A stretch of DNA of 61,182 nt, filler included, from Coriobacteriales bacterium (GCA_031263105.1; 7 parts of 7 records of this genome joined end to end with filler, not necessarily neighbours in it), one strand, 5' to 3'; positions 218 to 61,179 are shown, counted from the whole stretch's first letter. Numbers and translations: made by a program. The notes: generated from the sequence alone by a model not told the origin.

Positions 218-2806
218 ATGGAACACGCACGCACCGCGCCGCGCAAGGACGCGCCACGCAAGGCACTGGCCTGCCTCCTGGCGGCCGTGCTCGCATTCTC
301 GCTCGCAGGCGCGCCCGTCGCCTACGGGGCCGAGGCGGCAGACGGGCCGGGCACGGAGGCGGCCGCAGCTCCCGGGGCCGCGCAGGATGCTGATGCGGGG
401 GAGGGTGTTGGGGGCGGCTTCGGGCCGGGCACCGGGGCGGGGGAGGATGTCGGGGGCATCGTCGGGCCGGATGCCGCCCTTGCCGTCGAAGGGGATGCCG
501 ACGGCGGCGCACAGGAGGTAGAACCCAGCGTCGAGCCGGACACCGAACCCGGCGACGCACAGGCCGCCGAGCCCGATAGCGTACAGGGCGCAGAGCCCGC
601 CGTCGGGCCGGATGCCGGGCCCGGCGTCGAAGGGGAAGCTGGCGACATCACACAGGGCACCGGCTCCGATGCCGCACAGGGTGCCGCCCCAGATGCGGAA
701 GGTTCCGCCGTGCCCCCTGCTGAGGCAGGGGAGGAGGCGGGTGACCTCGCGTCCTTGGCGAGTCACACCATCGACGTGTCCGCCGGGGTCGCAGGCGGCA
801 CGGGCTACACCTGGGACGCCACGACCAAGGTGGTGACCTTCACGGCGGCCGCCAAAGGGAGCACCTACACGCTCATCCAGACCGGGAAGCAGAACGCCCT
901 CGGCATCGTGGTTGCGAGCGGTGTCAGCACTACGATTACGCTCAAAAACCTCAATTTGGCGACGGAGCTTCCCTGCATCAAACTAGAGGGCACGGCGAAC
1001 CTGGCCCTCTCACTCGAAGGGACAAGCGAGCTGAAGTCGAGCTACAACGCAGGGATAGAGGTGACGCAGAGCGCCGTGCTTACCATCCAAGGCAAAGGGA
1101 AGCTGACAGCAACCAGCGACCACAACGGCGCAGGCATCGGAAGCAGTGAGGGCGGCTCCGGCGGCACCATAACCATCAGCGGCGGCACCGTCACAGCGAG
1201 CAGCTACAACAGTGCCGGCATCGGTGGCTCCGGCGGCGGAGTCGGTGGCAACATCAGCGTTACGAGCGGCACCGTCACGGCGACCGGCGGTATCAAGGGC
1301 GGCGCGGGCATCGGCGGCGGCGCCCGTGCCGTAGGCGACCCCTCCACCTCCGTCTCCATCGCGCCCGCCGCCACGGTCCGCGCCTTCGCCAAGGACGCGG
1401 CCACCCCTGCCATCGACGCCTACTGGGGCAACGCGGGGACGGGGCACTACGTGCTGGCCTACCTGGACGCGGCGCCCTGCGAGCGCACCCTCGCCTACTA
1501 CGCGGCAGGCTCCGCCTCGCGCACGGGTTCCCTCCCCCTCCCTGCGGGCTACTCCTCCTTCGCCTACACGACCGGCTCCGCCAAGGCGGGGACGCACCGC
1601 GTCTTCGCCTGGCAGGCGTCGCCTGCGGCCTACCTCGGGCGGGCCGAGCGCGTGTACGACTCCTCGCCCGACATCGCCTCCACCCTGAACGCCGCCCCCG
1701 TGGCGCTCAAGCTCAACGCGTCCGCCGCGGCACGCCCGCCGGACTGGCAGTACGCGGTCAGGCTCGACGCGAACGGCGGGAAGGTCGGCAAGGCCGCGTC
1801 CACGACCATGAAGCGGGCGAAGGGCACAGCGCTCGGCGCGCTGCCCACCCCAACACGCGCAGGACACGCCTTCCTCGGCTGGTACACGGGCAAGGCCACG
1901 GGCACGAGGGCCACCGCCTCGACGAAGGTCACGGGCGACGCGACCTACTGGGCGCACTGGAAGGCGAAGATCTACACCGTCAAGCTCGACGCCAACGGCG
2001 GCAAGGCCTCGCGGGCCTCCGTGAGGCGCGCCTACGGCTCCGCCATAGGGAAGCTCCCCAAAGCCGCGCGCGCCAACTGCACCTTCCTCGGCTGGTACAC
2101 CGCAAAGTCGGGCGGCAAGAAGGCGGGCACGGGTACGCGGGCCACCAAGGACACGACCTACTATGCCCGCTGGAAGGCCAACGGCCCCGTAGTCACCCTC
2201 GACGCCAACGGCGGCAAGGTCGGCAAGTCCGCCAGGGCGTCCCTGGTGCGCGCCAAGGGCGCGGCCATAGGCAAGCTCGCCACCCCGAAGCGCGCCGGCT
2301 ACACCTTCAAGGGATGGTTCACCGGCAAGGTGAGGGGCACGAGGGTCACCGCTGCCACGAGGGCCACAAGGAGCGTCACCCTCTACGCCCACTGGAAGGC
2401 CAAGAGCTACACCGTCAAGCTCAACGCCAACGGCGGCAGGCTCGGCAAGGCATCGACCTTCTCCACGAAGAGATCCCACGACGCGAAGTTCGGCAGGCTC
2501 GCGGCCCCCAAGCGCACAGGCTACAAATTCGATGGCTGGTACACCGCCAAGAGGGGCGGCACCAAGGTGACGGCCTCGACGATGGTCACCCGGGCCGTAA
2601 CCCACTACGCCCCCTGGAAGCGGGGGCGGTTGGGGGTGGGCGCAGGGGTGCGCAAGTTAATGTTCACCCCCCCCCCCCCCCCCCCCACTGTCATCCCGAG
2701 CCCGCCGAGGGATCTTTGGGTCCGAGCGCCCGGAAAACGCACCGCGTTTTCAGCGCGGACGGGCCGACAGGCCCACGGAACGCGAAGCGACCAACAGCAG
2801 GTCTGA
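218..2806 (+). CDS. Secreted/surface protein with acidic linker, GAGIGG beta-helix-like repeats and C-terminal InlB B-type repeats
   Basis: ATG 218 after GAAGGGG; signal peptide (RKALACLLAAVLAFSLAGAPVAYG); four V.L(D/N)ANGG...F.GW(Y/F)T.K..G...Y(W/Y)A.WK repeats. The true stop is probably near 2625; the ORF runs through G/C homopolymers into the repeat element. Confidence 0.8.
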   Translation: MEHARTAPRKDAPRKALACLLAAVLAFSLAGAPVAYGAEAADGPGTEAAAAPGAAQDADAGEGVGGGFGPGTGAGEDVGGIVGPDAALAVEGDADGGAQEVEPSVEPDTEPGDAQAAEPDSVQGAEPAVGPDAGPGVEGEAGDITQGTGSDAAQGAAPDAEGSAVPPAEAGEEAGDLASLASHTIDVSAGVAGGTGYTWDATTKVVTFTAAAKGSTYTLIQTGKQNALGIVVASGVSTTITLKNLNLATELPCIKLEGTANLALSLEGTSELKSSYNAGIEVTQSAVLTIQGKGKLTATSDHNGAGIGSSEGGSGGTITISGGTVTASSYNSAGIGGSGGGVGGNISVTSGTVTATGGIKGGAGIGGGARAVGDPSTSVSIAPAATVRAFAKDAATPAIDAYWGNAGTGHYVLAYLDAAPCERTLAYYAAGSASRTGSLPLPAGYSSFAYTTGSAKAGTHRVFAWQASPAAYLGRAERVYDSSPDIASTLNAAPVALKLNASAAARPPDWQYAVRLDANGGKVGKAASTTMKRAKGTALGALPTPTRAGHAFLGWYTGKATGTRATASTKVTGDATYWAHWKAKIYTVKLDANGGKASRASVRRAYGSAIGKLPKAARANCTFLGWYTAKSGGKKAGTGTRATKDTTYYARWKANGPVVTLDANGGKVGKSARASLVRAKGAAIGKLATPKRAGYTFKGWFTGKVRGTRVTAATRATRSVTLYAHWKAKSYTVKLNANGGRLGKASTFSTKRSHDAKFGRLAAPKRTGYKFDGWYTAKRGGTKVTASTMVTRAVTHYAPWKRGRLGVGAGVRKLMFTPPPPPPTVIPSPPRDLWVRAPGKRTAFSARTGRQAHGTRSDQQQV

Positions 2807-3006
2807 GAGCCCTTCGACCTACTGTCGACCGCTGGCGCGGTCGAAGATTCCTCGGCAGGCTCGGAATGACAGTGGGGTGTGGACAGTGGGGTGTGGACAG
2901 TGGGGTGTGGACAGTGGGGTGTGGACAGTGGGGTGTGGACAGTGGGGGTGTGGACAGTGGGGGTGTGGACAGTGGGGGTGTGGGCAGTGGGGGTGTGGGC
3001 AGCAAC
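2656..3006. mobile_element. GTTAC-TIR palindromic element, copy 1, with 14/15-nt tandem expansion of its right end
   Basis: gttaatgttcac-polyC-cactgtcatcccgagc ... gctcggaatgacagtgggg, then (ggacagtgggg[g]tgt)n at about 2867-3000, ending gggcagcaac. Confidence 0.85.
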
Positions 3007-3090
3007 CCGGTAGGCGCAGCGGCGCGGCGGCGGCGCGGCGGCGGGCGGCGCGGCGGCGGTTGCCGCTGGGCCGCACGCGGCGAACAAGGG

Positions 3091-3113
3091 TATACTGGTA
3101 CGTTCAACGTACC
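3091..3113 (+). promoter_or_regulatory. Putative -10 box (TATACT) followed by a perfect palindrome
   Basis: TATACT 3091-3096, then GGTACGTT-C-AACGTACC 3097-3113, upstream of the ACP operon. Confidence 0.45.
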
Positions 3114-3132
3114 GGACATGAGGAGCAGCGTA

Positions 3133-3375
3133 ATGGCAGACATCGAGAACTATCGGCAGGCCTTTGTGGAGACCTTGGAGATCGACGAGGGCCAATTGGG
3201 AGCGGACCTGCTCTATCAGAGCGTGGAGACCTGGGACAGCGTCGGGCACATGCAGCTGGTCACGGCCTTGGAGGACGCCTTCGACATCATGCTCGACACC
3301 GACGACATCATAGACCTCAGCTCCTACCTTGCGGGAATCGAGATACTGAAGAAATATGACGTCTCGTTCGATTGA
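3133..3375 (+). CDS. Acyl carrier protein
   Basis: AGGAG RBS; 80 aa acidic protein; WDSVGHM phosphopantetheine-serine motif. Confidence 0.9.
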   Translation: MADIENYRQAFVETLEIDEGQLGADLLYQSVETWDSVGHMQLVTALEDAFDIMLDTDDIIDLSSYLAGIEILKKYDVSFD

Positions 3376-4810
3376 GCAGCTGGAACGGTACGGCGAGGAC
3401 ATCGCCTGCATAGAGTCCGGCGAGCGCTTCACGTACCGGCAGCTGCTCGCGGCGGCCGACGGGGTAGCCGCTCCGATCGACGGGCGCCCCCTGGTCGCGC
3501 TGTCGGCGGCGAACACCGTCCCTTCCCTGGCCGCGTACCTCGGCTTCCTGAGACGGGGCATACCGGTGATGCTGCTGCCTTCCGACATGAGGCAGGACGT
3601 CCTGCAGGAGACGCTCGCGGCCTACCGTCCCGGCTATCTCTTCGCGCCGCTCGGCGCGTGGGAGCGGGAGGCGCCCCGTTCCCTCTGCTCGTTCAGGGGC
3701 CACGCCCTGTTCGATGTCGGGGAGCTCGGGGCCCGGGGCGTCGCGGGGGCACCCGGCTCCCAAGGCGTGCCGGACGCGCCTGTCCCCCTCCACCCCGACC
3801 TGGCCCTCCTGCTGACCACGTCGGGCTCCACCGGCTCCCGCAAGTACGTGCGCCTCTCCGTGCGGAACCTCAACGCCAACGCCCGCTCCATCGCCGACTA
3901 TCTGGGCATCGGGCCAGGCGACCGCGCCATCACGACGCTGCCCTTCTCGTACTCCTATGGGCTCTCCATCATCAACAGCCACCTGCTTGAGGGCGCGACC
4001 CTCGTCCTCAACGAGGATCCTCTCGTCAACCGGCGCTTCTGGGACACGCTGCGCGAGCAGGAGGCCACGACCTTCGGCGGGGTCCCCTACACCTACTCCC
4101 TGCTCAAGCGCCTGCGCTTCGAGCGCATGGACCTGCCGTCCCTCAGATACCTGACGCAGGCCGGCGGCCGTCTGGGCGAGGAGCTCCATCGGGAGTTCGC
4201 CGAGACCTGCGCAAGGAAGGGCATCGGCTTCGTCGTCATGTACGGGCAGACGGAGGCCACGGCGCGGATGTCCTATCTGGCGGCATCGGACGCGTCGCGG
4301 TTCATAGGCAGCGTGGGGAAGGCCATCCCCGGAGGCCGGTTCGAGCTGCGGGGCGCCGACGGGGAGACGGTCGAGCGCCCCGGCGAGGAGGGCGAGCTCG
4401 TCTACTTTGGCGACAACGTCTCCTTGGGCTATGCCGAACAGGCCTCCGACCTTGCAAAAGGCGACGAGAACTGCGGCCGGCTGGAGACGGGCGACATCGC
4501 GAGAAGGGACGAGGAGGGCAACTGCTACATCGTCGGCAGGAAGAAGCGCTTCCTGAAGATACACGGCAAGCGGACGAACTTGGACGAGCTGGACGCCCTT
4601 CTCGAACGGGAGGGGTTCTCTGCGGCATCCACAGGAAGCGACGACAGGCTCATGGTCTATACTGACATGGACGACCCGGACGCGATCAGGACCTTCCTCA
4701 TCAGGACGATCGGCCTGAACAAGGGCACCTTCGAGATACGGCGCATCGAGGCCATCCCAAGGAGCGATTCCGGGAAGGTGCGGTATTCCGCCTTGGAGGA
4801 CAGGCGCTAG
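3356..4810 (+). CDS. AMP-binding acyl-CoA/ACP ligase
   Basis: TTSGSTGSRK P-loop, MYGQTEA, TGDIA and GRKKRFLK adenylation motifs. Confidence 0.9.
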   Translation: MTSRSIEQLERYGEDIACIESGERFTYRQLLAAADGVAAPIDGRPLVALSAANTVPSLAAYLGFLRRGIPVMLLPSDMRQDVLQETLAAYRPGYLFAPLGAWEREAPRSLCSFRGHALFDVGELGARGVAGAPGSQGVPDAPVPLHPDLALLLTTSGSTGSRKYVRLSVRNLNANARSIADYLGIGPGDRAITTLPFSYSYGLSIINSHLLEGATLVLNEDPLVNRRFWDTLREQEATTFGGVPYTYSLLKRLRFERMDLPSLRYLTQAGGRLGEELHREFAETCARKGIGFVVMYGQTEATARMSYLAASDASRFIGSVGKAIPGGRFELRGADGETVERPGEEGELVYFGDNVSLGYAEQASDLAKGDENCGRLETGDIARRDEEGNCYIVGRKKRFLKIHGKRTNLDELDALLEREGFSAASTGSDDRLMVYTDMDDPDAIRTFLIRTIGLNKGTFEIRRIEAIPRSDSGKVRYSALEDRR

Positions 4811-4850
4811 CGAGATGCGAGCGAGACGCGAGCGAGATGCGAGAGAGATG
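4809..4850. repeat. 11-nt tandem repeat, about 4 copies
   Basis: agcgagatgcg agcgagacgcg agcgagatgcg agagagatg between the ligase stop and the next start. Confidence 0.7.
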
Positions 4851-7086: not shown

Positions 7087-7092
7087 GCTGCC

Positions 7093-7833: not shown

Positions 7834-7853
7834 GAGCGCCACCGCGCTGTCCC

Positions 7854-8603
7854 CTATGCCTGGGGCTGGCGAATCATGCGGTACTCCGTGAGTCCCAGAT
7901 CGGGCATGGGCGTCGTGCCGGTCACCTCGAAGCCCCGGCTCCCATAGAGGGCGGCCAGGTGCCCGGTGTAGCATTCCAGGAACAGGGGCATGCCGAGCCG
8001 GTCGCATTCGGCGGCGACGGGGCCCATCAGGTGGTCGAACGCGCCCGTCCCCCGGCAGGCCGCATCGACGCAGATCGCGTAGAGGTAGCGGAAGTCCCCC
8101 GTGCAGAGGCCTCCCATCCACTGCCCGTTCGAGAAGGCCTCCATCTGTTCAAGCCGGGCCGAGAGCAGCGTGCGGCTTTGGGGAGGCAAGGCCTCGCAGC
8201 CTTTCTCGAAGCCCCGTGTGCGCAGGGCGTCGAAGTCGGAGGCCGTCGGCATGTCCCTGCCCCCCACGAGGGCCAGCCCGACGGGCGGGGGCGCAGCGCC
8301 TGTGGCGCCTGTGTCGCCGTCTGCGACATCCGCGTTGCCCCCGCCGCTCGCAGCGCCCCCGCTGCCCGTCCTGCTCGCCACGAGGACGCCGCCCCATGCC
8401 GCGAAGCACGCGAGGTCCGTCCGACAGCTGCCGAGCAGGAAGGCCTGCTGTTCCTCACAGCTGGGAAGCACCTCTACAAGGGCCGCATTCCAGGGTTCCT
8501 CGGCGAAGCATCGCGCGAAAAGGGCCGTTGCGGCATCGCGCTCGTCGTCTCCGAGGAGGTGCGCCTCCGCCAGTGGAGTTACTGTACGCATCCCCACTGT
8601 CAT
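7854..8603 (-). CDS. GNAT-family acetyltransferase; the ancestral 5' end (8974-9004) is separated by element copy 2
   Basis: YLYAICVDAACRGTGA acetyl-CoA motif, PLFLEC, LYGSRGF. In-frame ATGs at 8603 and 8591 both lie inside the element terminus. Confidence 0.75.
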   Translation of the reverse strand: MTVGMRTVTPLAEAHLLGDDERDAATALFARCFAEEPWNAALVEVLPSCEEQQAFLLGSCRTDLACFAAWGGVLVASRTGSGGAASGGGNADVADGDTGATGAAPPPVGLALVGGRDMPTASDFDALRTRGFEKGCEALPPQSRTLLSARLEQMEAFSNGQWMGGLCTGDFRYLYAICVDAACRGTGAFDHLMGPVAAECDRLGMPLFLECYTGHLAALYGSRGFEVTGTTPMPDLGLTEYRMIRQPQA

Positions 8604-8973
8604 TCCGCACACCCCACTGTCATTCCGAGTCCTTCGGCTGCGCTCAGGAGAAACTCCGCCGAGGAATCCTTGGGTCCGAGCGCCCGGAAGACGCACCGCG
8701 TTTTCAGCGAGGACGGCGCGACAGTCCGGCGGACTGTCGCGGGGCGAAGCTGCGTTGGGAAACAGCCCAGTGGGCTGTTTCCGGGCGAAGCTGCGAAGCA
8801 GCGCGTGAGCCCCTGAGCGGGTGAGCCCATGGGACCGACAGGCCCACGGGACGCGAAGCAGCCGACTGCGGGCAGATGCGTCTCTCCGGCTGCAGTTGTG
8901 CGCTGGCGCGTCCAAGGATTCCTCGGCTTCGCTTCGCTGCGCTCGGAATGACAGTGGGGGCGTGAACAGTAAT
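8578..8973. mobile_element. GTTAC-TIR palindromic element, copy 2 (longest, 396 bp)
   Basis: gttactgtacgcatccccactgtcattcc ... ggaatgacagtgggggcgtgaacagtaat; flanks ccagtgga / ccagcgag (5/8 match). Confidence 0.9.
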
Positions 8974-9311: not shown

Positions 9312-9969
9312 ATGAAGCGGCTCGGCCCCGTTGCGGACCCCACCGTCGACGCGACCGGTGCCCAGCAGGCGGAAGACTATCTCTTCGGCCCGTGGACCAA
9401 TGAGGGCACGCTCAGCCTCAAGGGGCTTCTCGACTCTTTCGGCGGCGAGACGCTCACCGTGACCGTCTGGTTCGAGGACGGCCATCAATCCACCGTGGCC
9501 ATCGGGCTCGATTCCGTGGACGTCAAGTGCAGGCCGGTCTACGCCGACGTCGATGACGGTCACGGCCCGTATCGGCAGCGCATCGGCACGGAGTTCACCG
9601 ACGAGGTCGTCGAGCCGGATGCCCTGACCGAGCAGCAGCTCGAAGAGATCTACGACGCAGGCTACGAGATCGTCCACACCCTGCGCGGCACCGTCATCGA
9701 CAGCTCGACCTCTGTCAGCGGGCAAGTTACTGGTCACACCCTCCACGGACACCCCACTGTCGCCCCGGGCCCCGCTGCCGCCCCGGGCCCCGCTGCCGCC
9801 CCGGGCCCCGCTGCCGCCCCGGGCCCCGCTGCCGCCCCGGGTCCCGCTGTCGCCCCGGGTCCCGCTGTCGCCCCGGGCCCCACTGACGCCCCGGGTCCCG
9901 CTGTCTCCCCGAGTCCCGCTTTCAACCCGGGTCCGGCAGAGCCCACTGGACCCGCACTAGGCGCCGCTC
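9312..9969 (+). CDS. Hypothetical protein, 3' partial, with Pro/Ala-rich repeat tail
   Basis: Open frame with host-like codon usage to the contig end; no recognised motif; start uncertain. Confidence 0.5.
9726..9935. repeat. Element left end (copy 3) followed by an 18-nt tandem repeat
   Basis: gttactggtcacaccctccacggacaccccactgtc (matches the reverse complement of the copy 4 right end), then about 9 copies of cccgctgycgccccgggy. Confidence 0.8.
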
Positions 9970-10069: not shown

Positions 10070-10690
<621 letters not shown>

Positions 10691-11105: not shown

Positions 11106-11127
11106 GGTCGCCTCCCTCGATCCTTCC

Positions 11128-15218: not shown

Positions 15219-15446
15219 GTTACTGCTCACGCCCCACTGTCATTCCGAGCCTGTCGAGGAATCTTTGGTCGCGAAGCGACCAACAGTAGGTCGGGAGATC
15301 TTTCGACGTGCGGTCGGCCGCTGGTGCGTTCCATGGGCCTGTCGCGCCGTCCTCGCTGAAAACGCGGTGCGTTTTCCGGGCGCTCGGACCCGAAGATTCC
15401 TCGACAGGCTCGGAATGACAGTGGGGTGTCCGTGGAGGGTGTGACC
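15219..15446. mobile_element. GTTAC-TIR palindromic element, copy 4
   Basis: gttactgctcacgccccactgtcattccgagcctgtcgaggaatct ... agattcctcgacaggctcggaatgacagtggggtgtccgtggagggtgtgacc. Confidence 0.9.
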
Positions 15447-18179: not shown

Positions 18180-18512
18180 GTTACTGACACCATGTGTTCA
18201 CACCCCACTGTCATTCCGAGTTCCACCGAGGAATCTTTGGACACGCAGTGTCCAACGGTAGGCCAGGGGAGCCTTCGACCTGCGGTCGGCTGCTCCGCGT
18301 TCCGTGGGCCTGTCGGTTCCATGGGCTCACCCGCTCAGGGGCTCACCCGCTGCTCCGCAGCTTCGCCCGGAAACAGCACACTGTGCTGTTTCCCAGTCCG
18401 CCGGACCGTCGCGCCGTCCTCGCTGAAAACGCGGTGCGTTTTCCGGGCGCTCGGACCCGAAGATCCCTCGGCTGCGGGGCCTTGCCCCTCCGCTCGGGAT
18501 GACAGTGGGGGG
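18180..18512. mobile_element. GTTAC-TIR palindromic element, copy 5 (reaches contig end)
   Basis: gttactgacac...caccccactgtcattccgag ... ctcgggatgacagtgggg; shares internal modules with copy 2 in the opposite orientation. Confidence 0.9.
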
Positions 18513-18612: not shown

Positions 18613-18699
18613 TGGGGCGCCTCCGTCGTAATCGTTTTACCCCCTTCCCGCATATACATCGTCACCTCATGTGGGGGCTGGGGGACGCCCCCCCCCCCC

Positions 18700-18975
18700 C
18701 CCCCCCACTGCCGCTCCGCGCCCCCACTGCCGCTCCGCCCCCACTGCCGCTCCGCCCCCACTGCCGCTCCGCCCCCACTGTCATCCCGAGCCTGTCGAGG
18801 AATCTTTGATCGTGAAGCGATCAACTGCGATCGGGAGGCGCACCTGTCCGCGGTCGACCGCGGGCGCGGTCGAGGATCCCTCGGCAGGCTCGGGATGACA
18901 GTGGGGGGCGCGGAGCGGCAGTGGGGGCGGAGCGGCAGTGGGGCCGGGATGACAGTGGGGGGTGCGAACTGAAAC
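18700..18975. mobile_element. GTTAC-TIR palindromic element, copy 6, with mirrored 17-nt tandem repeats
   Basis: (cccccactgccgctccg)x4 - cactgtcatcccgagc ... gctcgggatgacagtg - (cggagcggcagtgggg)x2 ... ggtgcgaactgaaac. Confidence 0.85.
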
Positions 18976-19109
18976 GCCAATCGGTACTCTCCAAAGGAAA
19001 AACGGCTCCTTCTCTTGACCCTGCGAGGGGGTCTGTTACTATTTCTAGCATGGGTTTTTAGGTCGAGAACGTGCCGTCCCATGCAAGTAGACGCAGTTGG
19101 AGGATGTCA

Positions 19110-20244: not shown

Positions 20245-21264
20245 GTGCCGACGGGCGCGGCAGGCGCGGCAGGCGCGACGGGCGCGGCAGGCGCGGCGGG
20301 CGCGGCAGGCGCGGCAGGCGCGGCGTTACTGGTCACACCCCACTGTCATTCCGAGCCTGTCGAGGAATCCTCGACCGCGTCAGCGGTCGACTGCGGTCAG
20401 AGGGCGCTCCGACCTGCGGTCGGCTGCTTCGCGTTCCATGGGCCTGGCGGCCCGTCCTCGCTGAAAACGCGGTGCGTTTTCCGGGCGCTCGGACCCGAAG
20501 ATTCCTCGGCTCCGCTTCGCTGCGCTCGGAATGACAGTGGGGGTGTGACCAGTAACGGCGCGGCGGGCGCCCTGCGTGCGGCAGGCAGCGTCATCGCAGA
20601 CAACCACCGGCGCATCCGCGAGGAGATAGCGGCCGCCTGTGCGCGCGTGGGGCGCGACCCTGCGGAGGTCACGGTCGTTGCCGTGAGCAAGACCGTCGGC
20701 CTCGCCGAGGTCGCCCGGGCCGTCGAGGGCGGCATCCACGACTTCGGCGAGAACCGCTCGAAGCCGTTCAACGAGAAGCGCACGGCGTTCCCTGACGAGC
20801 GCTGGCACTTCATCGGCAGCATCCAGACCAACAAGATAAAGGAGTTCGTCGGGCGGGCGGCCCTGGTGCACTCGGTCGCCTCGGAGCGCGCACTGGAGGG
20901 CATCGCACGGCGCGCATGCCTGCTGGGCTGCGTCCAACGGCTGCTGATAGAGGTGAACGTCTCGGGCGAGGGGAGCAAGGACGGCGCAACGCCCGCCCTT
21001 CTCCCCCTTCTTCTGGAGAGGGCCGCCGAGCTCGAGGGCATCGAGGTCGCAGGGCTCATGACCATGGCGCCCCAGGGCGACCGGGCCGCCGCCCGTGAGG
21101 CCTTTGCCTCCCTGCGCCGCCTGCGGGACGACCGGGCGGCCTCGCTGGGCCCCCTTGAGCGGGTGCCGCTCCGTGAACTTTCGATGGGGATGTCCGAAGA
21201 CTACGCCATCGCCGTCGAGGAAGGTGCTACAATAGTACGCATAGGCAGGAGCATGTGGGCCTGA
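20245..21264 (+). CDS. yggS: YggS-family PLP-binding protein; start at GTG 20245 (reads through element) or GTG 20545 (inside element end)
   Basis: VAVSKT, FGENR, WHFIG.IQTNK, GLMTMAP, LSMGMS.DY..A.EEGAT.VRIG; located after ftsZ. Confidence 0.85.
   Translation: MPTGAAGAAGATGAAGAAGAAGAAGAALLVTPHCHSEPVEESSTASAVDCGQRALRPAVGCFAFHGPGGPSSLKTRCVFRALGPEDSSAPLRCARNDSGGVTSNGAAGALRAAGSVIADNHRRIREEIAAACARVGRDPAEVTVVAVSKTVGLAEVARAVEGGIHDFGENRSKPFNEKRTAFPDERWHFIGSIQTNKIKEFVGRAALVHSVASERALEGIARRACLLGCVQRLLIEVNVSGEGSKDGATPALLPLLLERAAELEGIEVAGLMTMAPQGDRAAAREAFASLRRLRDDRAASLGPLERVPLRELSMGMSEDYAIAVEEGATIVRIGRSMWA
20252..20324. repeat. 9-nt tandem repeat (ggcgcggca), about 8 copies
   Basis: Direct reading; encodes GAA repeats in the yggS frame. 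Confidence 0.85.
20325..20556. mobile_element. GTTAC-TIR palindromic element, copy 7, with exact 8-bp flanking direct repeat
   Basis: gttactggtcacaccccactgtcattccgagc / gctcggaatgacagtgggggtgtgaccagtaac; ggcgcggc on both sides. Confidence 0.92.
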
Positions 21265-23466: not shown

Positions 23467-23473
23467 GTTACTG
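23467..23473. repeat. Probable stub of another element end at the contig break
   Basis: gttactg immediately after the yggT stop and directly before the N linker; only 7 nt visible. Confidence 0.5.
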
Positions 23474-28212: not shown

Positions 28213-28461
28213 CCCCACTGTCATCCCGGCCCCCACTGTCATCCCGAGCCTGCCGAGGGATCCTCGGCCGCGCCAGCGGCCGACCGCAGGCCGAAGGGCC
28301 CCCTGGCCTGCCGTTGGACACTGCGTGTCCAAAGATTCCTCGGCGGAGCTCGGAATGACAGTGGGGGCCGGGATGACAGTGGGGGTGTGACGTGTGACAT
28401 GGCGGTGGGGGCCGGGGTGGCGGTGGGGGCTCGGGACGGCGGTGGGGGTGTGACGTGTAAC
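28213..28461. mobile_element. GTTAC-TIR palindromic element, copy 8 (left end cut by contig edge)
   Basis: ccccactgtcatcccggc-ccccactgtcatcccgagc ... gctcggaatgacagtgggg-gccgggatgacagtgggg ... gtgtgacgtgtaac. Confidence 0.88.
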
Positions 28462-34051: not shown

Positions 34052-34215
34052 GTTACTGTTCACACCCTCACTGTCATTCCGAGCCCCGCCGAGGAATCTT
34101 TGGACACGCAGTGTCCAACGGCAGGCCAGGGGACCCTTCGGCCCGCAGTCGACCGCTTGCGCGGTCGAAGATCCCTCGACAGGCTCGGGATGACAGTGAG
34201 GGTGTGAACAGTAAC
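34052..34215. mobile_element. GTTAC-TIR palindromic element, copy 9 (164 bp)
   Basis: 34-bp TIR, 33/34 match (gttactgttcacaccctcactgtcatyccgagcc); flanks cacgaaaa / cacgaaac. Confidence 0.93.
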
Positions 34216-34418: not shown

Positions 34419-34542
34419 GGACACTGCGTGATCCGTGGGCCTGCCGGCCCGTCCTCGCTGAAAACGCGATGCGTTTTCCGGGCGCTCGGACCCAAAGATT
34501 CCTCGGCGGAGCTCGGAATGACAGTGAGGTGCGAACAGTAAC
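34419..34542. mobile_element. GTTAC-TIR palindromic element, copy 10 (left part cut by contig edge)
   Basis: cgctgaaaacgcgatgcgttttccgggcgctcggaccc ... gctcggaatgacagtgaggtgcgaacagtaac. Confidence 0.88.
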
Positions 34543-39930: not shown

Positions 39931-40090
39931 GTTACAGACACCCCCACTGTCATTCCGAGCCCCGCCGAGGAATCTTTGGACACGCAGTGTCCAACGGCAG
40001 GCCAGGGGGCTCTTCGGCCTGCGGTCGACCGCTGGCGCGGCCGAGGATCCCTCGACAGGCTCGTGATGACAGTGGGGTGTGCGCAGTAAC
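39931..40090. mobile_element. GTTAC-TIR palindromic element, copy 11 (160 bp)
   Basis: gttacagacacccccactgtcattccgagc ... gatgacagtggggtgtgcgcagtaac; flanks gacgcccc / aacgcccc. Confidence 0.92.
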
Positions 40091-48791: not shown

Positions 48792-48803
48792 GCCTTCCTG
48801 CTC

Positions 48804-53035
<4,232 letters not shown>

Positions 53036-54469: not shown

Positions 54470-54497
54470 AACAGCAAGGGAACGGCAGCGGCAGGCC

Positions 54498-55481: not shown

Positions 55482-55574
55482 GTCTCCTCCGTCCGTTCGA
55501 GGCGTCACCTGCTCAAGGGGCCTCCGTCGCCCCTGCCTCCATTATCGGTATATCGCAACGCACGTCAAGGAAAC

Positions 55575-55716
55575 GGTACTGCCCACACCCCACTGTCATC
55601 CCTCGGCAGGCTCGGGATGACAGTGGGCTGCGGGGCTTCGCCCCGGAGTTTACCCTGAGCGCAGCCGAAGGGCTCGGGATGACAGTGGGGGGGGGGGGGG
55701 GGGGGGTGGCCGGGAA
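55575..55716. mobile_element. GTTAC-TIR palindromic element, copy 13 (internally deleted or rearranged)
   Basis: ggtactgcccacaccccactgtcatcc ... two gctcgggatgacagtggg right ends; gagtttaccctgagcgcagccgaagg module shared with copy 2. Confidence 0.8.
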
Positions 55717-55763
55717 TAGATAGCCCGTCCGGCGACGGCAGACAGAAAGGAAGGAGGAGGCGC

Positions 55764-56102: not shown

Positions 56103-56149
56103 GGCCCGGCAGAAGGCCGACCCTGTAACGTAGGAAGGAAGTGCACGTC

Positions 56150-57196
56150 ATGGCCGTTATCGACATCAACATCCACCATCTGCCGGAGGACCTGTTCTCC
56201 AACGAGAAGATCGGAGACGGCTTCTGGTCGACCGCCCCGCGCGCCTACGGCTGGAACGTCGAGGTGTTCGAGATGGAGTCGGGCAAGAAGCAGATGAACC
56301 TGGAGTACCCCAAGGGCTACTCCAACCTCAACTACGTCGAGGGCGACTACTCGGCGAAGTCCAAGCTCGACGCCATGGACGACGCAGGCGTGGACTTTGG
56401 CATCATGCGCGTGCCGGTCTGGCAGGAATGGCTGCGGGTGGAGACCTGCAGGGAGGTCAACGACAACGCCCACAAGATCGTCGGCGAGAGCGGAGGCCGC
56501 CTGTTCTCCACGGCCTGCGTCCCTCCGTGGGACTTCAAGGAGAACTTCTACGAGCTCGAGCGCTGCGTCAAGGACCTCGGTGCGGTAGGGGTGCAGCTCG
56601 CCTGCCACTACGGGCAGCTCTACCTCGACGACGAGGCCTTCCGCCCGATGCTCAGGAAGATCAGCGAGCTCAACGTCCCCGTGGTCGTGCACCACACGCC
56701 GCTCTCAGCCTACCCGCAGGACATCCTCGACTACCAGAACTTCCGCCGCGAGTTCGGGCGCATCAGCAGCCAGGCCACCGCTGTGGGCCGCGAGCTGTTC
56801 AGCGGCATGTTCGCGGAGCTGCCCGAACTCAGGCTCATCCACACGATGTTCGGCGGAAACTGGTTCGCCAACGCCGAGCTCCTGCGCCCCAAGAAGAGCG
56901 TCAAGAAGGAGGCCATGCAGCGCCTCTCCACGGACGACGCCGACGCCATCGTCCGTGGCATGAGGGAGAACATCTTCTTCGACATGACCCATCCGCACAG
57001 CTGGGGCAAGGAGCAGGTCGAGTGCGCGGTGAGGGTCAGCGGTGCCGACCATCTGCTCTTCGGGTCGAGCTTCCCCGTGTTCTACGGCTGGATGTCGCAG
57101 GGGGTCGAGTTCGTCAAGGGCCTCGACGTCACCGAGGAGGAGCGCGAGCTCATGCTCTTCGGCAACGCGAAGCGGATGTTCAACCTGCCGGTGTAG
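56150..57196 (+). CDS. Amidohydrolase_2 family protein (decarboxylase/hydratase-like)
   Basis: IDINIHH, MDDAGVD, ELERCVK.LG..GV, VVVHH, F.ELPELR.IH, LLFGSSFP. Confidence 0.8.
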   Translation: MAVIDINIHHLPEDLFSNEKIGDGFWSTAPRAYGWNVEVFEMESGKKQMNLEYPKGYSNLNYVEGDYSAKSKLDAMDDAGVDFGIMRVPVWQEWLRVETCREVNDNAHKIVGESGGRLFSTACVPPWDFKENFYELERCVKDLGAVGVQLACHYGQLYLDDEAFRPMLRKISELNVPVVVHHTPLSAYPQDILDYQNFRREFGRISSQATAVGRELFSGMFAELPELRLIHTMFGGNWFANAELLRPKKSVKKEAMQRLSTDDADAIVRGMRENIFFDMTHPHSWGKEQVECAVRVSGADHLLFGSSFPVFYGWMSQGVEFVKGLDVTEEERELMLFGNAKRMFNLPV

Positions 57197-57206
57197 CCGG
57201 TCGAAG

Positions 57207-57360
57207 GTTACAGTTCACACCCCCACTGTCATTCCGAGCCCCGCCGAGGAATCTTTGGACACGCAGTGTCCAACGGCAGGTCAGGGGGCCCCTCGACCTG
57301 CGGTCGACAGCTTGCGCGGTCGAGGATCCCTCGGCAGGCTCGGGATGACAGTGGGGGGTC
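57207..57360. mobile_element. GTTAC-TIR palindromic element, copy 14 (outer right end missing)
   Basis: gttacagttcacacccccactgtcattccgagc ... gctcgggatgacagtgggggg. Confidence 0.9.
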
Positions 57361-57448
57361 CGGGGAGGGGCGCAGCGACGGGCCGCGCCTCCCTCGAAGC
57401 CGAAACGACAAGGAGGGGCACGAAGCCCCCGGAACGAGGAGGAACGTT

Positions 57449-58798
57449 ATGAGCAAACCTGTAGCAGCGGCCGAAGGAGGCGCGCCCATGAGGACGCCGT
57501 CGTATGCCTGGCCCTGCCTGATCGTCTCGCTCCTGTGCGCGGTGGTCATCGTGTTCGCCTGGCAGTGGCTGCCGGGGGTCACCTTCCCCACCTTCCAGGG
57601 CTGGGAGGCACAGAACAACCCCACCTACGACGCGTCGCTGGTGGCCCACGTCATGGGCCTGGTGCCCATCGCGGCCATGATCATGGTGTTCCCCACCTCG
57701 TGGATCGTGCGCAAGTGGGGGCCCAAGGTCGGCACCGTCGTCGGGATGGCCCTGGCGATCGTCGGAACCTTGATCTCGACCCTTGCGGTGGCCAGCGACT
57801 TCATGGTCTTCCTGGTGGGGCGGTTCGTGCTGGGCTTCGGCCTGGCGACCACCGTCATCTCGGGGCCGACCTGCGTCTCCATCTGGTTCCCGCACGCCAC
57901 CCGAGGACGCGGCATGGCCATCTGGTCCACCTGGGCGCCCATCGGCATCTTCACCATCAATGCGACCGGCAGCCAGCTGTTCACCCTCGCAGGCTCGGAC
58001 ATGACCAACCTGCACTGGATAATCCTGGGCGTCCTGGCGGTGATGCTGGTCCTGTTCGTCGTCGTCTTCCGTGAGCCGCGCTCCGACGAGGCGTCCGAGG
58101 TCTCGGCCGAACGCAAGGGCTTCAAGGAGGTGCTGCCGCTCTTCAGGAAGCGCCAGCTGTGGTGCCTTATCGTCATGTTCGCGATATTCAACTATATGAA
58201 CTACGCCTTCAGCCAGTACCTGAAGAGCTGGCTTCAGCTCTCCGAGCGTGCGGGCGGCCTCGGCTGGGACGCGACGATGGCCGGACTGGTGGGCGGGGCC
58301 ATCGTGGCCTGCGGCATCCTTGCGCCCCTTGGCGGCTTCATCCTCGACAAGGCGCCGAAGCACCTGAAGTACCTCTGCGTGGTCGCCGGCATAACCGGGC
58401 TGACGCTCTGCTGCGCCTTCTCGTTCCAGAACAGCCTGCCGATGTTCGCCCTGTACGTCCTGTTCTTCTGCATCGGCAACATGTTCCTCAACGGCTGCTG
58501 CCGCCCCATGGTGCCCACCTACCTGTTCAAAGGCGGCGCAACGGCCGTGGCGCTGGGCCTCTCCTTCCTCACCTTCGGCCAGTACCTCGGCCAGAGCTTC
58601 ACGAGCTATGCGCTCGACGCCTTCAAGCACACGCTCTCCCAGCCCCCCGTCGATGCCTCGCTGGCCTTCTGGGTGCTGGTCCCCGTGGGCGCCGTCGGCG
58701 TCGTCTTGAGCCTGATGATGAAGCCGTCCAAAAAGGAGGCCGAGGCCATGAAGGCCGGTGGGGGCAAGCCGGGCGGCGGCGGGCCGGGCGGCCACTGA
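57449..58798 (+). CDS. MFS transporter
   Basis: AGGAGG RBS; about 12 TM segments; RKWGPK, GRFVLGFG, WFP...RG..M. Confidence 0.9.
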   Translation: MSKPVAAAEGGAPMRTPSYAWPCLIVSLLCAVVIVFAWQWLPGVTFPTFQGWEAQNNPTYDASLVAHVMGLVPIAAMIMVFPTSWIVRKWGPKVGTVVGMALAIVGTLISTLAVASDFMVFLVGRFVLGFGLATTVISGPTCVSIWFPHATRGRGMAIWSTWAPIGIFTINATGSQLFTLAGSDMTNLHWIILGVLAVMLVLFVVVFREPRSDEASEVSAERKGFKEVLPLFRKRQLWCLIVMFAIFNYMNYAFSQYLKSWLQLSERAGGLGWDATMAGLVGGAIVACGILAPLGGFILDKAPKHLKYLCVVAGITGLTLCCAFSFQNSLPMFALYVLFFCIGNMFLNGCCRPMVPTYLFKGGATAVALGLSFLTFGQYLGQSFTSYALDAFKHTLSQPPVDASLAFWVLVPVGAVGVVLSLMMKPSKKEAEAMKAGGGKPGGGGPGGH

Positions 58799-58941
58799 GG
58801 CCGTGCGCCGACGGTGCGACCGACAGACAAAGGTCTTACCAGGCGAGGAGTCGCCTGTAGGCAAAGGGGGGCGATGGCCAAGTCGACCAGGTTGTCGCCC
58901 CCAGGACACAAGGATATCGACAGAACCAGAAAGGAAAGAAG

Positions 58942-59472
58942 ATGAAAGAGTCAGTCAAGAGGTCGTCCCTGCTCACTTCCCTGTTCGCGCTCGTGCTCGC
59001 CCTAGGCCTGGGCCTGGGCCTCGCCGGTTGCTCGAGCCCCAGCAGCGCCGACAGCGACGCGCCGCCTGCGGCCACGCCTGCGACGGGGGACGCCGCGGAC
59101 AAGGACGAGCCCGCCGAGCCCGCCGCCGCCGAGGACACAGACGAGCCGACAGCCGGCACGGCGAGCGTCTCGGAAGAGGTGCAGGGCATGTGGTTCTCCA
59201 AGAGCGAGATCCTCCCGCCCGAACAGGAGACCGACCAGTACTCCCTTGAGGTCGCCGCCGACGGCAGCTTCGTCGTCTTGGACGGCGAGGCCGAGCTGTA
59301 CACCGGCACGCTGGAGATCACCGACCAGCCCGAGGCCGGATGGGGCGACGCCGAGATCGACGGCAAGGCCATCGCCGTCCAGCTGGTGAACGCCCAGGGC
59401 GTCTACAAGCTCATCATCAACGCCGGCGACGACTGGGACAAGGACCTCAAGAAGATCGTGTTCATGCGCTAG
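58942..59472 (+). CDS. Putative lipoprotein
   Basis: AAGGA RBS; signal peptide with LAGC lipobox; acidic linker. Confidence 0.82.
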   Translation: MKESVKRSSLLTSLFALVLALGLGLGLAGCSSPSSADSDAPPAATPATGDAADKDEPAEPAAAEDTDEPTAGTASVSEEVQGMWFSKSEILPPEQETDQYSLEVAADGSFVVLDGEAELYTGTLEITDQPEAGWGDAEIDGKAIAVQLVNAQGVYKLIINAGDDWDKDLKKIVFMR

Positions 59473-59497
59473 AAAGGCACTGGGTTAATCCCCTCGT

Positions 59498-59587
59498 CCG
59501 TCATTGCGAGGAGCGAAGCGACGAAGCAATCCAGTTCGTAACCCGCGAGTCTCCGACTGGATTGCTTCGCTTCGCTCGCAATGACGG
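59498..59587. repeat. CGTC-tagged/RPE-like palindromic repeat (different family)
   Basis: ccgtcattgcgaggagcgaagcgacgaagcaatccag ... ctggattgcttcgcttcgctcgcaatgacgg. Confidence 0.85.
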
Positions 59588-59649
59588 GATAGATTGGAGG
59601 GGCACCGAGTTGACGGACAGGAGCATCTCGGAAGGGGGGCACCGTACCG

Positions 59650-60984
59650 ATGGACAAGGACATCCGGCGCAAGGGCTGGATCGTGCTCTGCGCACTGCTC
59701 TTTGCCGGCATCATCGTCATCATGAACCAGTTCAAGGTCCCGACCTTCATGGGAGGGCTGGCCCTTGAGTTCTTCGACGGCGACATGGGGGCGACCGGTT
59801 GGCTCATGTCGATCATCGCCCTCGCCGGCATCGTCACCGCCTTTCCGGCGGCGTTCCTGATAAACCGCTTCGGGCCGCGCCCCGTCGGCCTCGTGGGCAT
59901 CGGCTTCATGGTCGTCGGCTGCACGCTGGGGGCGCTGACCGGCAGCGACGTGGCGCAGCTGCTGGCAGGGCGCGTGCTGGAGGGCATCGGCGTGGCGACG
60001 ATGGGCACGGTGGCGACGACCGTCATCTCCATGTACTTCCCTCGGGAGAAGGCCGGGCTCCCCATGGGGCTTTGGAACCTGTGGTACGTCACCGGCGCCT
60101 CGCTCGCCTACACCATCGGCGTGCCGGTGGCCCTCGCCCTCACGGGCGATGCGCACAACTGGCACGCCTGGTGGTGGTTCGCCGACGTCCTAGCCCTGCT
60201 CGCGTTCGTCGTCTTTGCGCTGGTCGTCCAAAAGCCGCGCGTCGCGCGTGACCAGGAGAGGGCGGCACGCAGACGGGCGGGCGAGGACGTCGGGCACCGC
60301 CCCTCGATCGTGGAGGGCCTCAAGGTCTGGCGCATGTGGCTGTTCGGCCTGGGCTTCTGCCTGGTGCTGGGCGCGTCTCTCTGCGTCTTCACCTGGGTTC
60401 CCACCTATGTGCAGCTCCACGAGGTCCCGCTCCTGGTCGCAGAGGGCGCCGCCCGAGGGATGGCGCCCGAGGCCGCCCTCGGCTGGGCCGCCGAGCAAGC
60501 GGGCATCACGAGCGGCTGGATGTCCTCGATAGGCTTCCTTGCCGCCATTCCCGTCTCGGTCGCCACGGGCTTCCTGCTCAAACGCTTCTCGACCATCAAG
60601 GCACGCAACACCATGGCCGTCATCGCCGCCTGCCTGGCCCTCCTCTACGTCTTCGCCTTCATGGTCCCCTACGAGTACCTGCCCTGGTACCTCGTGCTCC
60701 TGGGGCTGGAGAGCGGCTACACCTCGGGCGTCATCTGGGCCATGGTGCCCATCACCATGCCGAAGCGCATCACCATGCCCATCGGCATGGCCGTCATCAT
60801 CTTCTTCCAAGGCATCTCCAACCTGCTCTGTACGCCGGTGGTGGGCTATGTCGTCGGCAACCTGGCCGACCCGCATTGGGAGAACGTCGCGCCGCTGGTG
60901 CTCGGCTGCGTGCTGGCCGGCATGGCCTGCTGGCTCGTCTACGGCGTCACGAAGGCCCCGCCCTTCGAAGAGGATGCGGCGTAA
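59650..60984 (+). CDS. MFS transporter
   Basis: About 12 TM segments; NQFKVP, NRFGPR, GRVLEGIG, FP.EK.G.PMG.W. Confidence 0.9.
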   Translation: MDKDIRRKGWIVLCALLFAGIIVIMNQFKVPTFMGGLALEFFDGDMGATGWLMSIIALAGIVTAFPAAFLINRFGPRPVGLVGIGFMVVGCTLGALTGSDVAQLLAGRVLEGIGVATMGTVATTVISMYFPREKAGLPMGLWNLWYVTGASLAYTIGVPVALALTGDAHNWHAWWWFADVLALLAFVVFALVVQKPRVARDQERAARRRAGEDVGHRPSIVEGLKVWRMWLFGLGFCLVLGASLCVFTWVPTYVQLHEVPLLVAEGAARGMAPEAALGWAAEQAGITSGWMSSIGFLAAIPVSVATGFLLKRFSTIKARNTMAVIAACLALLYVFAFMVPYEYLPWYLVLLGLESGYTSGVIWAMVPITMPKRITMPIGMAVIIFFQGISNLLCTPVVGYVVGNLADPHWENVAPLVLGCVLAGMACWLVYGVTKAPPFEEDAA

Positions 60985-60987
60985 GGG

Positions 60988-61179
60988 GTTACTGCTCACG
61001 CCCCCGCTGCCGCCCCGGGCCCCCCACTGTCATTCCGAGCGCAGCGAAGCGGAGCCGAGGAATCTTTGGACACGCAGTGTCCAACCGCAGGTCAAGGGGC
61101 CCTTCGAGCTACGGTCGACCGCTTACGCGGTCGAAGATCCCTCGGCAGGCTCGGGATGACAATGAATGTGAACAGTAAT
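60988..61179. mobile_element. GTTAC-TIR palindromic element, copy 15
   Basis: gttactgctcacgcccccgctgccgccccgggccccccactgtcattccgagc ... gctcgggatgacaatgaatgtgaacagtaat. Confidence 0.9.

Follow-up and report, generated by a model that had tools for sequence, protein, structure and literature searches.

The small self-complementary elements with GTTAC...GTAAC ends that are scattered through this DNA are, with a probability that we put at roughly 85 per cent, MITEs (non-autonomous DDE transposons) that form a high-copy family and belong to the single-ORF, ISBst12-like type of the IS66 family. Both parts of the element can now be named: the shell is IS66 family, ISBst12-like and single-ORF, and the cargo is CGTC-REP / NTS / SRM-like.

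Copies in the window and in the genome

The window, i.e. the whole stretch of 61,182 nucleotides that was analysed, consists of seven contigs of the source genome (G000) with N/ttaattaattaa linkers between them. The genome is a draft of 250 contigs (2.9 Mb, 86 per cent complete), and the bacterium is a termite-gut organism. Family sequence was found at all 15 starts listed in the preliminary description of the window, and the consensus end given there, GTTACTG(T/G/C)TCACACCCCACTGTCAT(T/C)CCGAGC, proved to be correct. A 21-mer taken from the conserved end matched the window 24 times when up to three mismatches were allowed, as compared with no match in 100 dinucleotide-preserving shuffles. The high copy number proposed from the window is even more pronounced genome-wide: an nhmmer profile run on the whole assembly detected 537 loci, which amount to approximately 70 kb or at least 2.4 per cent of the assembly and are distributed over 212 of the 250 contigs. 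It had also been noticed that contig edges fall in or beside copies. This applies to the entire bin, whose fragmentation can be traced to the family, since 173 of the 500 contig ends (35 per cent, against an expectation of about 8 per cent) have a family locus within 300 bp.

The copies vary in length and completeness (coordinates are those of the window; the copies carry no strand assignment). Copy 9 (34052..34215) is the canonical 164-bp form, flanked by CACGAAAA / CACGAAAC (7/8 positions identical). Copy 11 (39931..40090) is complete with 160 bp and has the flanks GACGCCCC / AACGCCCC (7/8), and the likewise complete, 232-bp copy 7 (20325..20556; C229:1713-1944) lies within an exact 8-bp duplication of GGCGCGGC at 20317-20324 and 20557-20564. 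Copy 2 (8578..8973) is a multi-module element of 396 bp with the ends GTTACTGTACGC... and ...GAACAGTAAT, and its flanks (CCAGTGGA / CCAGCGAG) match weakly, at 5/8 positions. The 8-mers of copies 7, 9 and 11 and the weak match of copy 2 agree with what had been reported previously. In copy 12 (51309..51591) the left outer end gives way to a 15-nt tandem array, GTGACCCGTAAC forms the right end, and GCTGCGC(A/C) is present on either side (7/8). Copy 15 (60988..61179), with the ends GTTACTGCTCACGCC... and ...GAACAGTAAT, is at the window end, its right flank being outside the view.

Intact left ends were found in copies 3 (9726..9969), 4 (15219..15445) and 14 (57207..57372). In copy 3 the end is followed by an 18-nt tandem array, beyond which the contig stops within the copy, and in copies 4 and 14 the right outer end is degenerate, without GTAAC in copy 4. 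The long, multi-module copy 5 (18180..18512) is also cut by a contig end. Copy 8 (28213..28461) begins at a contig start and therefore lacks its left end, its right end being GTGTAAC at 28461; copy 10 (34419..34542) consists of the right half only, from a contig start. Copy 13 (55575..55705), a fragment, has been rearranged or has suffered a deletion, and its end is of the GGTAC type. Copy 1 (2656..3006) carries a tandem array: its left end, GTTAATG, is followed by a poly-C run, approximately nine tandem units of 14-15 nt precede the right outer end with the terminal GCAGCAAC, and the flanks share no matching 8-mer. In copy 6 (18690..18977), which lies roughly 90 nt from the start of a contig, a poly-C run together with a tandem array of 16-17 nt stands in place of the left outer end, and the right end is degenerate (GAACTGAAAC). 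Close to contig ends, part of the poly-C/G runs and tandem arrays may be artefactual. The 7-nt stub GTTACTG (23467..23473) terminates a contig; it is compatible with a break inside a copy and is too short to test.

Terminal repeats, target duplication and empty sites

The source genome contains 425 GTTAC-type ends, as compared with seven in the reversed genome. They form 95 complete GTTAC...GTAAC pairs of 109-541 bp, most frequently 160-169 bp (36 of 95). The copies are short and non-coding, have no transposase ORF inside, and carry at both tips a terminal inverted repeat (TIR) of 15-17 nt, GTTAC(T/A)G(T/G)TCACACC(CC). Among the 92 complete copies with flanks, the 8-bp duplication was exact in 42 and had at most one mismatch in 58, whereas shuffling the flank partners gave means of 0.49 and 0.77, respectively. 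No exact flank match was found in these copies at k=7 or k=9, and a recognisable duplication was absent (two or more mismatches) in 34 of the 92.

Three insertions could be compared with an uninterrupted site that has a single 8-mer, the site being a paralogous one in every case. The copy at C15:8449-8610 interrupts a repeat that is continuous in C145 and C232, where it contains one CAGAGCTG or a one-mismatch version of it, and an insertion in C148 has an uninterrupted paralogous site in C35. The third insertion, in C180, is nested inside the end of another copy. The preliminary description had interpreted the inverted repeats and duplications as a transposon signature and had considered that the flanking 8-mers might match at chance level; the flank statistics, which are far above chance, and the three empty sites uphold that interpretation. 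Insertion sites were spanned by open frames of at least 300 aa in 39 per cent of the cases, compared to 88 per cent for random sites, although such stop-to-stop frames are a crude and, at 64.5% GC, weak measure. The transposition activity of the family may be past, because the copies of the main subfamily are on average 87 per cent identical.

The self-complementarity that had been pointed out is strong. Copy 9 (164 nt) folds into a 34-bp outer stem and a three-hairpin junction. The folding energy for DNA is -66.2 kcal/mol (z = -12.1), and for RNA it is -116.2 kcal/mol (z = -13.5).

Two other genera of this bacterial family, g6 and g7, also contain small elements with these tips. Their 8-bp duplications are exact at three loci (L147, L148 and L149) and near-exact at two (L152, 7/8; L146, 6/8). 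The exact-end pattern had no match in public genome contigs and none in metagenome contigs, the source genome being left out in both cases, and a search of a plasmid collection yielded no match to the element. In the comparison with Rfam that had been suggested, no match was obtained over the window at the gathering score, and around copy 9, with E values up to 10, only chance-level rows appeared.

Correia/NEMIS, RUP and Nezha are short, non-coding, high-copy MITEs with TIRs and target duplications that are moved in trans; they are IS630- or IS30-like, with TA or other short duplications. The present family resembles these classical MITEs in being short, non-coding, of high copy number and furnished with TIRs and a target duplication, and differs from them in its IS66-type ends, its 8-bp duplication and its REP hairpin cargo.

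The probable partner IS and the search for the transposase

It had been stated that the window encodes no transposase that could move the elements. This holds, and a matching one was not found anywhere in the 86%-complete assembly either: PF03050, the IS66-type transposase profile, had no match, and neither a full-length element with the MITE ends nor a long GTTAC...GTAAC pair with a matching 8-mer was detected in the source genome. A search for a transposase ORF bounded by GTTACTG-type ends was nevertheless successful in a sister genus (G020). The IS found there is 2302 bp long (positions 211-2512 of locus L213, G020:C41), its ends are inverted GTTACAGGTCACACC identical at 15/15 positions, and its flanks, CAAAACGG / TAAAACGG, form an 8-bp duplication (7/8). 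It has one ORF of at least 100 aa, the 575-aa product of which scored 183.4 bits against NF033517 IS66 (cut-off 180) and 71.8 bits against PF03050 (cut-off 23.1; 8.5e-20), and also matched zf-IS66 and DUF6444. G020 holds one copy of the IS, and the ends are known from that single instance. The exact 15-mer was present at seven of 40 GTTACAGNTCACACC ends of the source genome, among the matches listed. Apart from the outer 15 nt the IS has nothing in common with the MITE, and it lacks the TGTCAT hairpin. The link between the two consists of the 15 shared nucleotides and the duplication length only.

An 8-bp target duplication is the general rule for the IS66 family. The members of its ISBst12 group have a single ORF and are without the tnpA/tnpB accessory genes; one of them, ISDge4 of Deinococcus geothermalis, has the TIR GTAACTGCTCAGCA and, like the present family, an 8-bp direct repeat (PMC12898284). 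By eye, 11 of 14 positions match between this TIR, from one published element, and GTTACTGCTCACAC of the family. The single transposase ORF of the group corresponds to that of the IS in G020, with its DDE_Tnp_IS66 and zf-IS66 domains. The MITEs, in contrast, have no ORF, measure only 109-541 bp, have an interior unrelated to the IS, and no transposase was found for them in the same genome. In the portions of text covered by a literature search no description of an IS66-derived MITE was found; with the present finding, the IS66/ISBst12 group gains a MITE family.

Taking these data together, we infer that the MITEs were mobilised in trans by a G020-like transposase. A 575-aa IS66-family enzyme of this kind would bind the MITE tips in trans, cut the target with an 8-bp stagger and then join the MITE in. 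Its gene would either not be contained in the 86%-complete, repeat-broken bin or have been lost since the burst.

A close homologue of the G020 transposase was found in only two of 301 sampled genomes of the order, no relative was found in the metagenome contig collection, and tblastn against the source genome gave a best E value of 0.39. A homologue in G061 (42 per cent identity) was rejected as partner, having no GTAAC-type inverted repeat. Transposases of the IS256, ISL3, IS1595 and IS6 families, which likewise produce 8-bp duplications, and those of the rve type were discarded as movers, all being absent from the source genome; IS6 was not detected in any of 34 genomes of the bacterial family, and the IS256, ISL3 and IS1595 loci of relatives have no GTTAC-type ends. 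Among loci L178-L217 of relatives, an inverted GTTAC-type pair was found in L213 only. The three IS5 and the one IS630 transposases of the source genome belong with other ends, of the CTAG/TA type.

The interior hairpin

The interior of the MITE is a doublet of TGTC-tagged hairpins with the tags facing outwards. Each hairpin runs from TGTCAT through a stem containing tandem G.A, a loop and the returning stem strand to ATC, so that the motif, TGTC-ATTCC...GGAAT-C, has an unpaired tag and a stem opening with A-T pairs. The doublet is followed by one to three further hairpin modules. In 670 arms, the pair after GTCAT was T-A in 413, C-G in 226 and non-complementary in 31, and in 25 of 65 complete copies the two arms had different variants. 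Thus, pairing covaries within an arm whereas the arms of one copy often differ, and the arm is a unit. The inner motif is also found free-standing in many phyla, as palindromes of 70-110 bp without GTTAC ends. The free-standing dimers from other phyla that were inspected by eye extended the palindrome by only 0-7 nt and had no obvious duplication, in contrast to the present dimer, which is placed inside transposon ends with an 8-bp duplication.

These properties are those of the CGTC-tagged REPs, which have an unpaired tag before the hairpin (CGTC being changed to TGTC in many repeats), a stem opening with A-T pairs, and usually the form of inverted dimers, often heterodimers, and which occur in many phyla (Di Nocera et al. 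2013, PMC3733652). In Halothiobacillus neapolitanus, CGTC-1 dimers sit inside 41-bp palindromes, and this 2013 survey closes with the statement that such REPs are apparently without a dedicated transposase (PMC3733652). CGTC-tagged REPs have been described also as dRS3/NTS of Neisseria and as Ssn-related motifs, and the idea that NTS-ssnA-NTS units are IS-like has been raised only (Chenal et al. 2025, PMC11893778). The present hairpin shares the tag, the A-T stem start, the inverted (hetero)dimers and the distribution over many phyla; it differs in the tandem G.A of the stem, in the varying loop length and in not matching the published SRM search string, which had 27 matches in the source genome against 21 in the reversed control and matched none of seven test arms. 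The hairpin belongs with the CGTC-REP / NTS / Ssn-related group. A text search of papers for the motif returned primer coincidences only.

The packaging of a REP-like doublet in MITE ends, which was the central suggestion of the preliminary description, is borne out by the IS of G020, which has no hairpin, by the free-standing motif of other genomes and by the agreement with the published TGTC variant (PMC3733652). The interior is neither a deleted IS nor IS-derived. As it is a doublet of TGTC hairpins instead, the MITE acts as a vehicle that copies the hairpin around the genome.

Other explanations and the meaning of the hairpin cargo

REPINs consist of two inverted REPs, which together form a long hairpin, and have the tag GTAG, and Y1/HUH transposition is not known to produce a target duplication. 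If the elements were REPINs, i.e. REP doublets mobilised by a tyrosine (Y1/HUH) transposase of the REP-associated type (RAYT), the GTTAC tips would be a mere extra palindrome. An inverted doublet folding into a long hairpin is indeed present, and it belongs to a published REP super-family, in the description of which RAYTs are mentioned (PMC3733652). Four Y1_Tnp matches were found in the source genome, and two of its ORFs resemble RAYTs, one in C191 (264 aa, 64.9 bits) and one in C165 (286 aa, 57.2 bits). Both, however, are under the curated cut-off of NF047646 (80 bits), and neither has the motif adjoining: it is absent within C191:1500-5500, and the motif nearest to the ORF in C165 is approximately 1.4 kb away. 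Since, in addition, the tag is TGTC, not GTAG, and a duplication of fixed length (8 bp) is seen, unlike in Y1/HUH transposition, we consider such an origin very unlikely.

Hardly more can be said for an explanation in which the hairpins, as Ssn-related motifs, are primary and owe their spread or their retention to a small GIY-YIG single-strand nuclease, with IS66-like tips that are incidental. In five motif-carrying genomes from other phyla, seven of 11 small GIY-YIG frames (104-211 aa) were flanked by the motif on both sides, the flanked frames being in four of these genomes, compared to none of six long GIY-YIG proteins. Furthermore, TGTCAT-like sequence was seen by eye on both sides of a 97-aa GIY-YIG gene of a relative (G023), and NTS-ssnA-NTS units and cutting of single-stranded DNA near the hairpin have been published (PMC11893778). 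The source genome differs from the Ssn systems in that no ssn gene was found in it: its sole GIY-YIG match was the N-terminus of UvrC, and 10 small GIY-YIG-region frames used as tblastn queries yielded no credible match (best E = 8.5e-4). This best match came from one 211-aa stop-to-stop frame. The failure of the motif to fit the SRM string also speaks against the nuclease, which moreover leaves the 8-bp duplication and the shared IS ends unexplained, and its role as the primary agent is very improbable.

Immobile structural or regulatory palindromes (terminators, supercoiling sites) multiplied by recombination or assembly error would be in keeping with the very stable fold, with the low frequency of sites within long frames, as expected of intergenic elements, and with poly-C/G runs and tandem arrays that could be partly artefacts, but they are already contradicted by the fixed-length flank duplication and the paralogous empty sites, and do not agree with the nested insertion in C180, the duplications beside the same tips in other genera and the existence of an IS with these tips in G020.

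If the elements are IS66-type MITEs, they offer a concrete route by which CGTC-tagged REPs (dRS3/NTS/SRM) multiply, namely as a hairpin dimer between IS66-type ends, every insertion leaving an 8-bp duplication, and show one way in which such hairpins can spread. A wider reading can be proposed tentatively, with the odds somewhat against it. CGTC/TGTC-tagged REP hairpins (NTS/SRM) would be multipliable inside DDE transposon ends, the MITE delivering a functional single-strand DNA signal and not plain junk. An IS66-type shell would have carried hairpin dimers through several genera of the family, with differing variants, and would have undergone a burst to more than 500 loci in one termite-gut lineage; the arms would be under selection as separate single-strand hairpins, in line with the covariation within arms and the frequent difference between them; and an IS200-family element would also use the hairpins as its landing site. 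The family further provides a marker sequence with which this uncultured lineage can be binned and its strains typed.

Abundance and mobility of the GTTAC...GTAAC elements

The preliminary description had listed 15 copies of a miniature element (family A) in the window, and its observation was supported: family sequence was present at all 15 starts, several of the copies being truncated by contig ends, rearranged or degenerate at the outer end. Allowing up to 3 mismatches, a 21-mer from the conserved end had 24 matches in the window and 0 in 100 shuffles. The 61,182 bases of the window include N/ttaattaattaa linkers between the seven contigs, and public runs containing the stretch are labeled termite gut metagenome. 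The draft genome (G000; 2,905,931 bp in 250 contigs, G+C 64.5%, completeness rating 86%, contamination 6.5%) was the sole representative of its genus among the genomes compared. In this assembly the 16-nt core, with up to 2 mismatches, occurred 1242 times on 214 of the 250 contigs; this overstates the number of elements, since the core is present in two or more tandem copies at 109 of 425 ends. GTTAC-type ends numbered 425, against 7 in the reversed genome. Complete GTTAC...GTAAC pairs numbered 95 and spanned 109-541 bp, with 36 of them in the 160-169 bp range. A profile built on 37 copies detected 537 merged loci on 212 of 250 contigs, amounting to 70,091 bp or 2.4% of the assembly. As had been noted for the window, contig edges tend to fall in or beside copies: 173 of 500 contig ends were within 300 bp of a family locus (about 8% expected), thus the assembly breaks at the elements and the true copy number must be higher. 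One copy, at a contig end, lies approximately 30 bp upstream of the uvrC start codon (G000:C202:4240-4392).

Parts of the ends, either the TIR core or a CCCCACTGTCATCCCGAGC unit, are duplicated as tandem arrays with units of 14-20 nt; in the window these occupy positions 2880-3006, 9760-9969, 18700-18790 and 51309-51385, and genome-wide 109 of the 425 ends carry them. They may stem from slippage, from the hairpin head being cut and repaired repeatedly, or in part from assembly error. Long poly-C/poly-G runs at contig starts and within some copies (window 1-90, 2670-2690, 10070-10120 and 18690-18710) are possibly artefacts of sequencing or assembly and not biological.

Among 92 complete copies with flanks, the 8-bp flanks were identical in 42 and differed by one mismatch in 16 more, whereas shuffled partners gave means of 0.49 and 0.77 and maxima of 3 and 4 over 300 permutations. 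No exact matching was found at 7 or 9 bases. When 57 sites were rebuilt without the element and queried against the same genome, uninterrupted counterparts were found for three, all paralogous rather than orthologous. The C15 copy interrupts a repeat whose versions on C145 and C232 are continuous, with a single CAGAGCTG or its one-mismatch form; the C148 site has a similar uninterrupted counterpart on C35, and the C180 copy is nested within the end of another copy. The flank statistics and the three empty sites bear out the proposed combination of TIR and 8-bp duplication: family A is mobile DNA generating an 8-bp target duplication. Target preference is weak. The duplicated 8-mers have 57% G+C (genome 64.5%), with G or C at the eighth position in 50 of 58. 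Open frames of at least 300 aa spanned 39% of 51 insertion sites versus 88% of 1000 random sites, a crude measure at high G+C.

An IS66-type element with the same tips

The preliminary description had placed the transposase outside the window, and none of the tested families (ISL3, IS256, IS66, IS1595, IS6 and rve-type) was found even in the whole draft genome. The transposase-like genes present were three of the IS5 family, one of the IS630 family and four Y1-like. Apart from one of 557 bp, G000 had no long pair of family ends bordered by matching 8-mers. Two ORFs resembling REP-associated tyrosine transposases (RAYT), G000:C191:2860-3651 (-) and G000:C165:2223-3080 (+), scored 64.9 and 57.2 bits with NF047646, short of the 80-bit cut-off in both cases, and the hairpin motif flanked neither of them.

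In other genera of the bacterial family, which is known from MAGs only (34 species), 1 to 4 tip matches were found per genome, compared with 0-1 in the control. Ten tip-bearing places were fetched. Small elements with an exact 8-bp duplication were found at three loci (L147, L148, L149) and with a near-exact one at two (L152, 7/8; L146, 6/8), and at L145 an identical 8-mer is repeated with a one-base offset. At both L145 (G023:C9) and L147 (G023:C93), two differing MITE variants stand in tandem, in identical order, and three copies of a locus-specific 8-mer border the pair on either side and separate its members. This arrangement suggests that one element inserted into the target duplication left by an earlier one. 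The 78-bp element at L146 (G023:C41) has family tips but no tagged hairpin inside, thus the shell can exist without REP cargo.

The 34 genomes were also screened for transposase families giving 8-bp duplications, and 40 loci were scanned for tips. A single one stood out (L213, G020:C41): a 2302-bp element with inverted ends GTTACAGGTCACACC (identical at 15/15 positions), flanked by CAAAACGG / TAAAACGG. Its one ORF (575 aa) is by score an IS66-family transposase (NF033517 183.4 bits, cut-off 180; PF03050 8.5e-20; also zf-IS66 and DUF6444). The exact 15-mer of this IS was found at 7 of 40 listed GTTACAGNTCACACC ends in G000. According to PMC12898284, ISDge4 of Deinococcus geothermalis, an IS66-family element of the ISBst12 group, has a single ORF, an 8-bp direct repeat and the TIRs GTGACTACTCAGCA/GTAACTGCTCAGCA. 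By our own comparison, 11 of 14 positions of its TIR match GTTACTGCTCACAC. Taken together, the shared tips and the likeness to ISDge4 argue for an IS66-type MITE shell. The MITE interior does not come from this IS: the outer 15 nt are the only sequence shared between the G020 IS and the MITEs. The IS had no blastn match in G000, and tblastn with its transposase detected no homologue there (best E-value 0.39). Of 301 genomes sampled from the order, only 2 had a close homologue, and a search of the metagenome collection gave none.

The interior hairpin

The arms read TGTCAT(T/C)CCGAGC, loop, CGAGG(A/G)ATC, followed by hairpin modules variable in number and order; the fold of a canonical copy comprises an outer stem of 34 bp, a short inner stem and a junction of three hairpins. 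A pattern search of species-representative genomes for the arm motif alone gave at least 127 loci, the matches listed including Acidobacteriota, Chloroflexota, Verrucomicrobiota, Bacteroidota, Alphaproteobacteria, Gemmatimonadota, Planctomycetota and Clostridia. There the motif is free-standing, in 70-110-bp palindromes with outward tags, the palindrome extending only 0-7 nt further, and no target duplication was seen around these palindromes. By the published description, the interior hairpin is a member of the CGTC-tagged REP super-family (Di Nocera et al. 2013), which takes in Neisseria dRS3. Many of these REPs have TGTC in place of CGTC, stems start with A-T pairs, the units are mainly dimers, often heterodimers, and they 'apparently lack a dedicated transposase' (PMC3733652). 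The reading of a REP-like doublet inside MITE ends was thus upheld. MITEs and REP hairpins have each been described; what is new is their combination, an IS66/ISBst12-type MITE with a TGTC-tagged REP dimer as cargo. No IS66-derived MITE was found in the accessible text of the literature searched, the closest precedent there being CGTC-1 dimers of one species inside 41-bp palindromes, without transposase or duplication (PMC3733652).

In 670 arms the pair after GTCAT and before ATC was T-A in 413, C-G in 226 and non-complementary in 31; in the loci of other phyla it was complementary in 201 of 202. The two arms carried differing variants in 25 of 65 complete copies, thus pairing is maintained within but not between arms. 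This pattern fits a signal read as a single-strand hairpin, for which a nuclease, a Y1 enzyme and the IS66 transposase are candidate readers.

A 2025 re-description of this REP family presents it as NTS / Ssn-related motifs, single-strand DNA targets of small GIY-YIG nucleases (PMC11893778). In five motif-bearing genomes of other phyla, 7 of 11 small GIY-YIG frames (104-211 aa) had the motif on both sides, the four unflanked ones all being in one genome, and 0 of 6 long GIY-YIG proteins were flanked. The sole GIY-YIG match in G000 was the UvrC N-terminus. Ten small GIY-YIG-region frames gave nothing credible there in tblastn; the best match (E = 8.5e-4) was obtained with a stop-to-stop frame of 211 aa, any part of which may have matched. 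The published SRM search string did not match the arm motif, and it hit the genome 27 times versus 21 in the reversed control. Among five relatives tested, G023 alone has a small GIY-YIG gene (97 aa) of this kind, lying between two stretches that resemble TGTCAT, as judged by eye.

Subfamilies and other mobile elements at the hairpins

In the main subfamily, to which 29 of 37 aligned copies belong, pairwise identity averaged 87% (range 55-97%). Tip nucleotides 6-8 were equal at both ends in 55 of 95 copies (24.7 expected under random pairing), and their variants associate with particular interior variants, a pattern to be expected if each subfamily was amplified from a master copy of its own.

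Two IS200/IS605-family tnpA elements (G000:C197:3537-4407 and G000:C168:12339-13300) are inserted in two different MITE copies, both exactly between CACTGTCAT and TCCGAGC. Their left ends bear a hairpin and their right ends terminate in ...TTAC; the C197 tnpA ORF has 137 aa (NF033573, 136.8 bits). The point of insertion makes the TGTCAT head of the hairpin look like the landing site of a Y1 element.

A second small-element family with CTAG/TA-type borders was observed at window 59470-59600 and on G000:C1, C96, C65, C81, C154, C31 and C48. Its ends resemble those of an IS630-family element on C1 (354-aa ORF, NF033545 217.9 bits). It also carries CGTCAT/TGTCAT hairpins, and five copies are composites in which the interior and a mutated right end are of family-A type.
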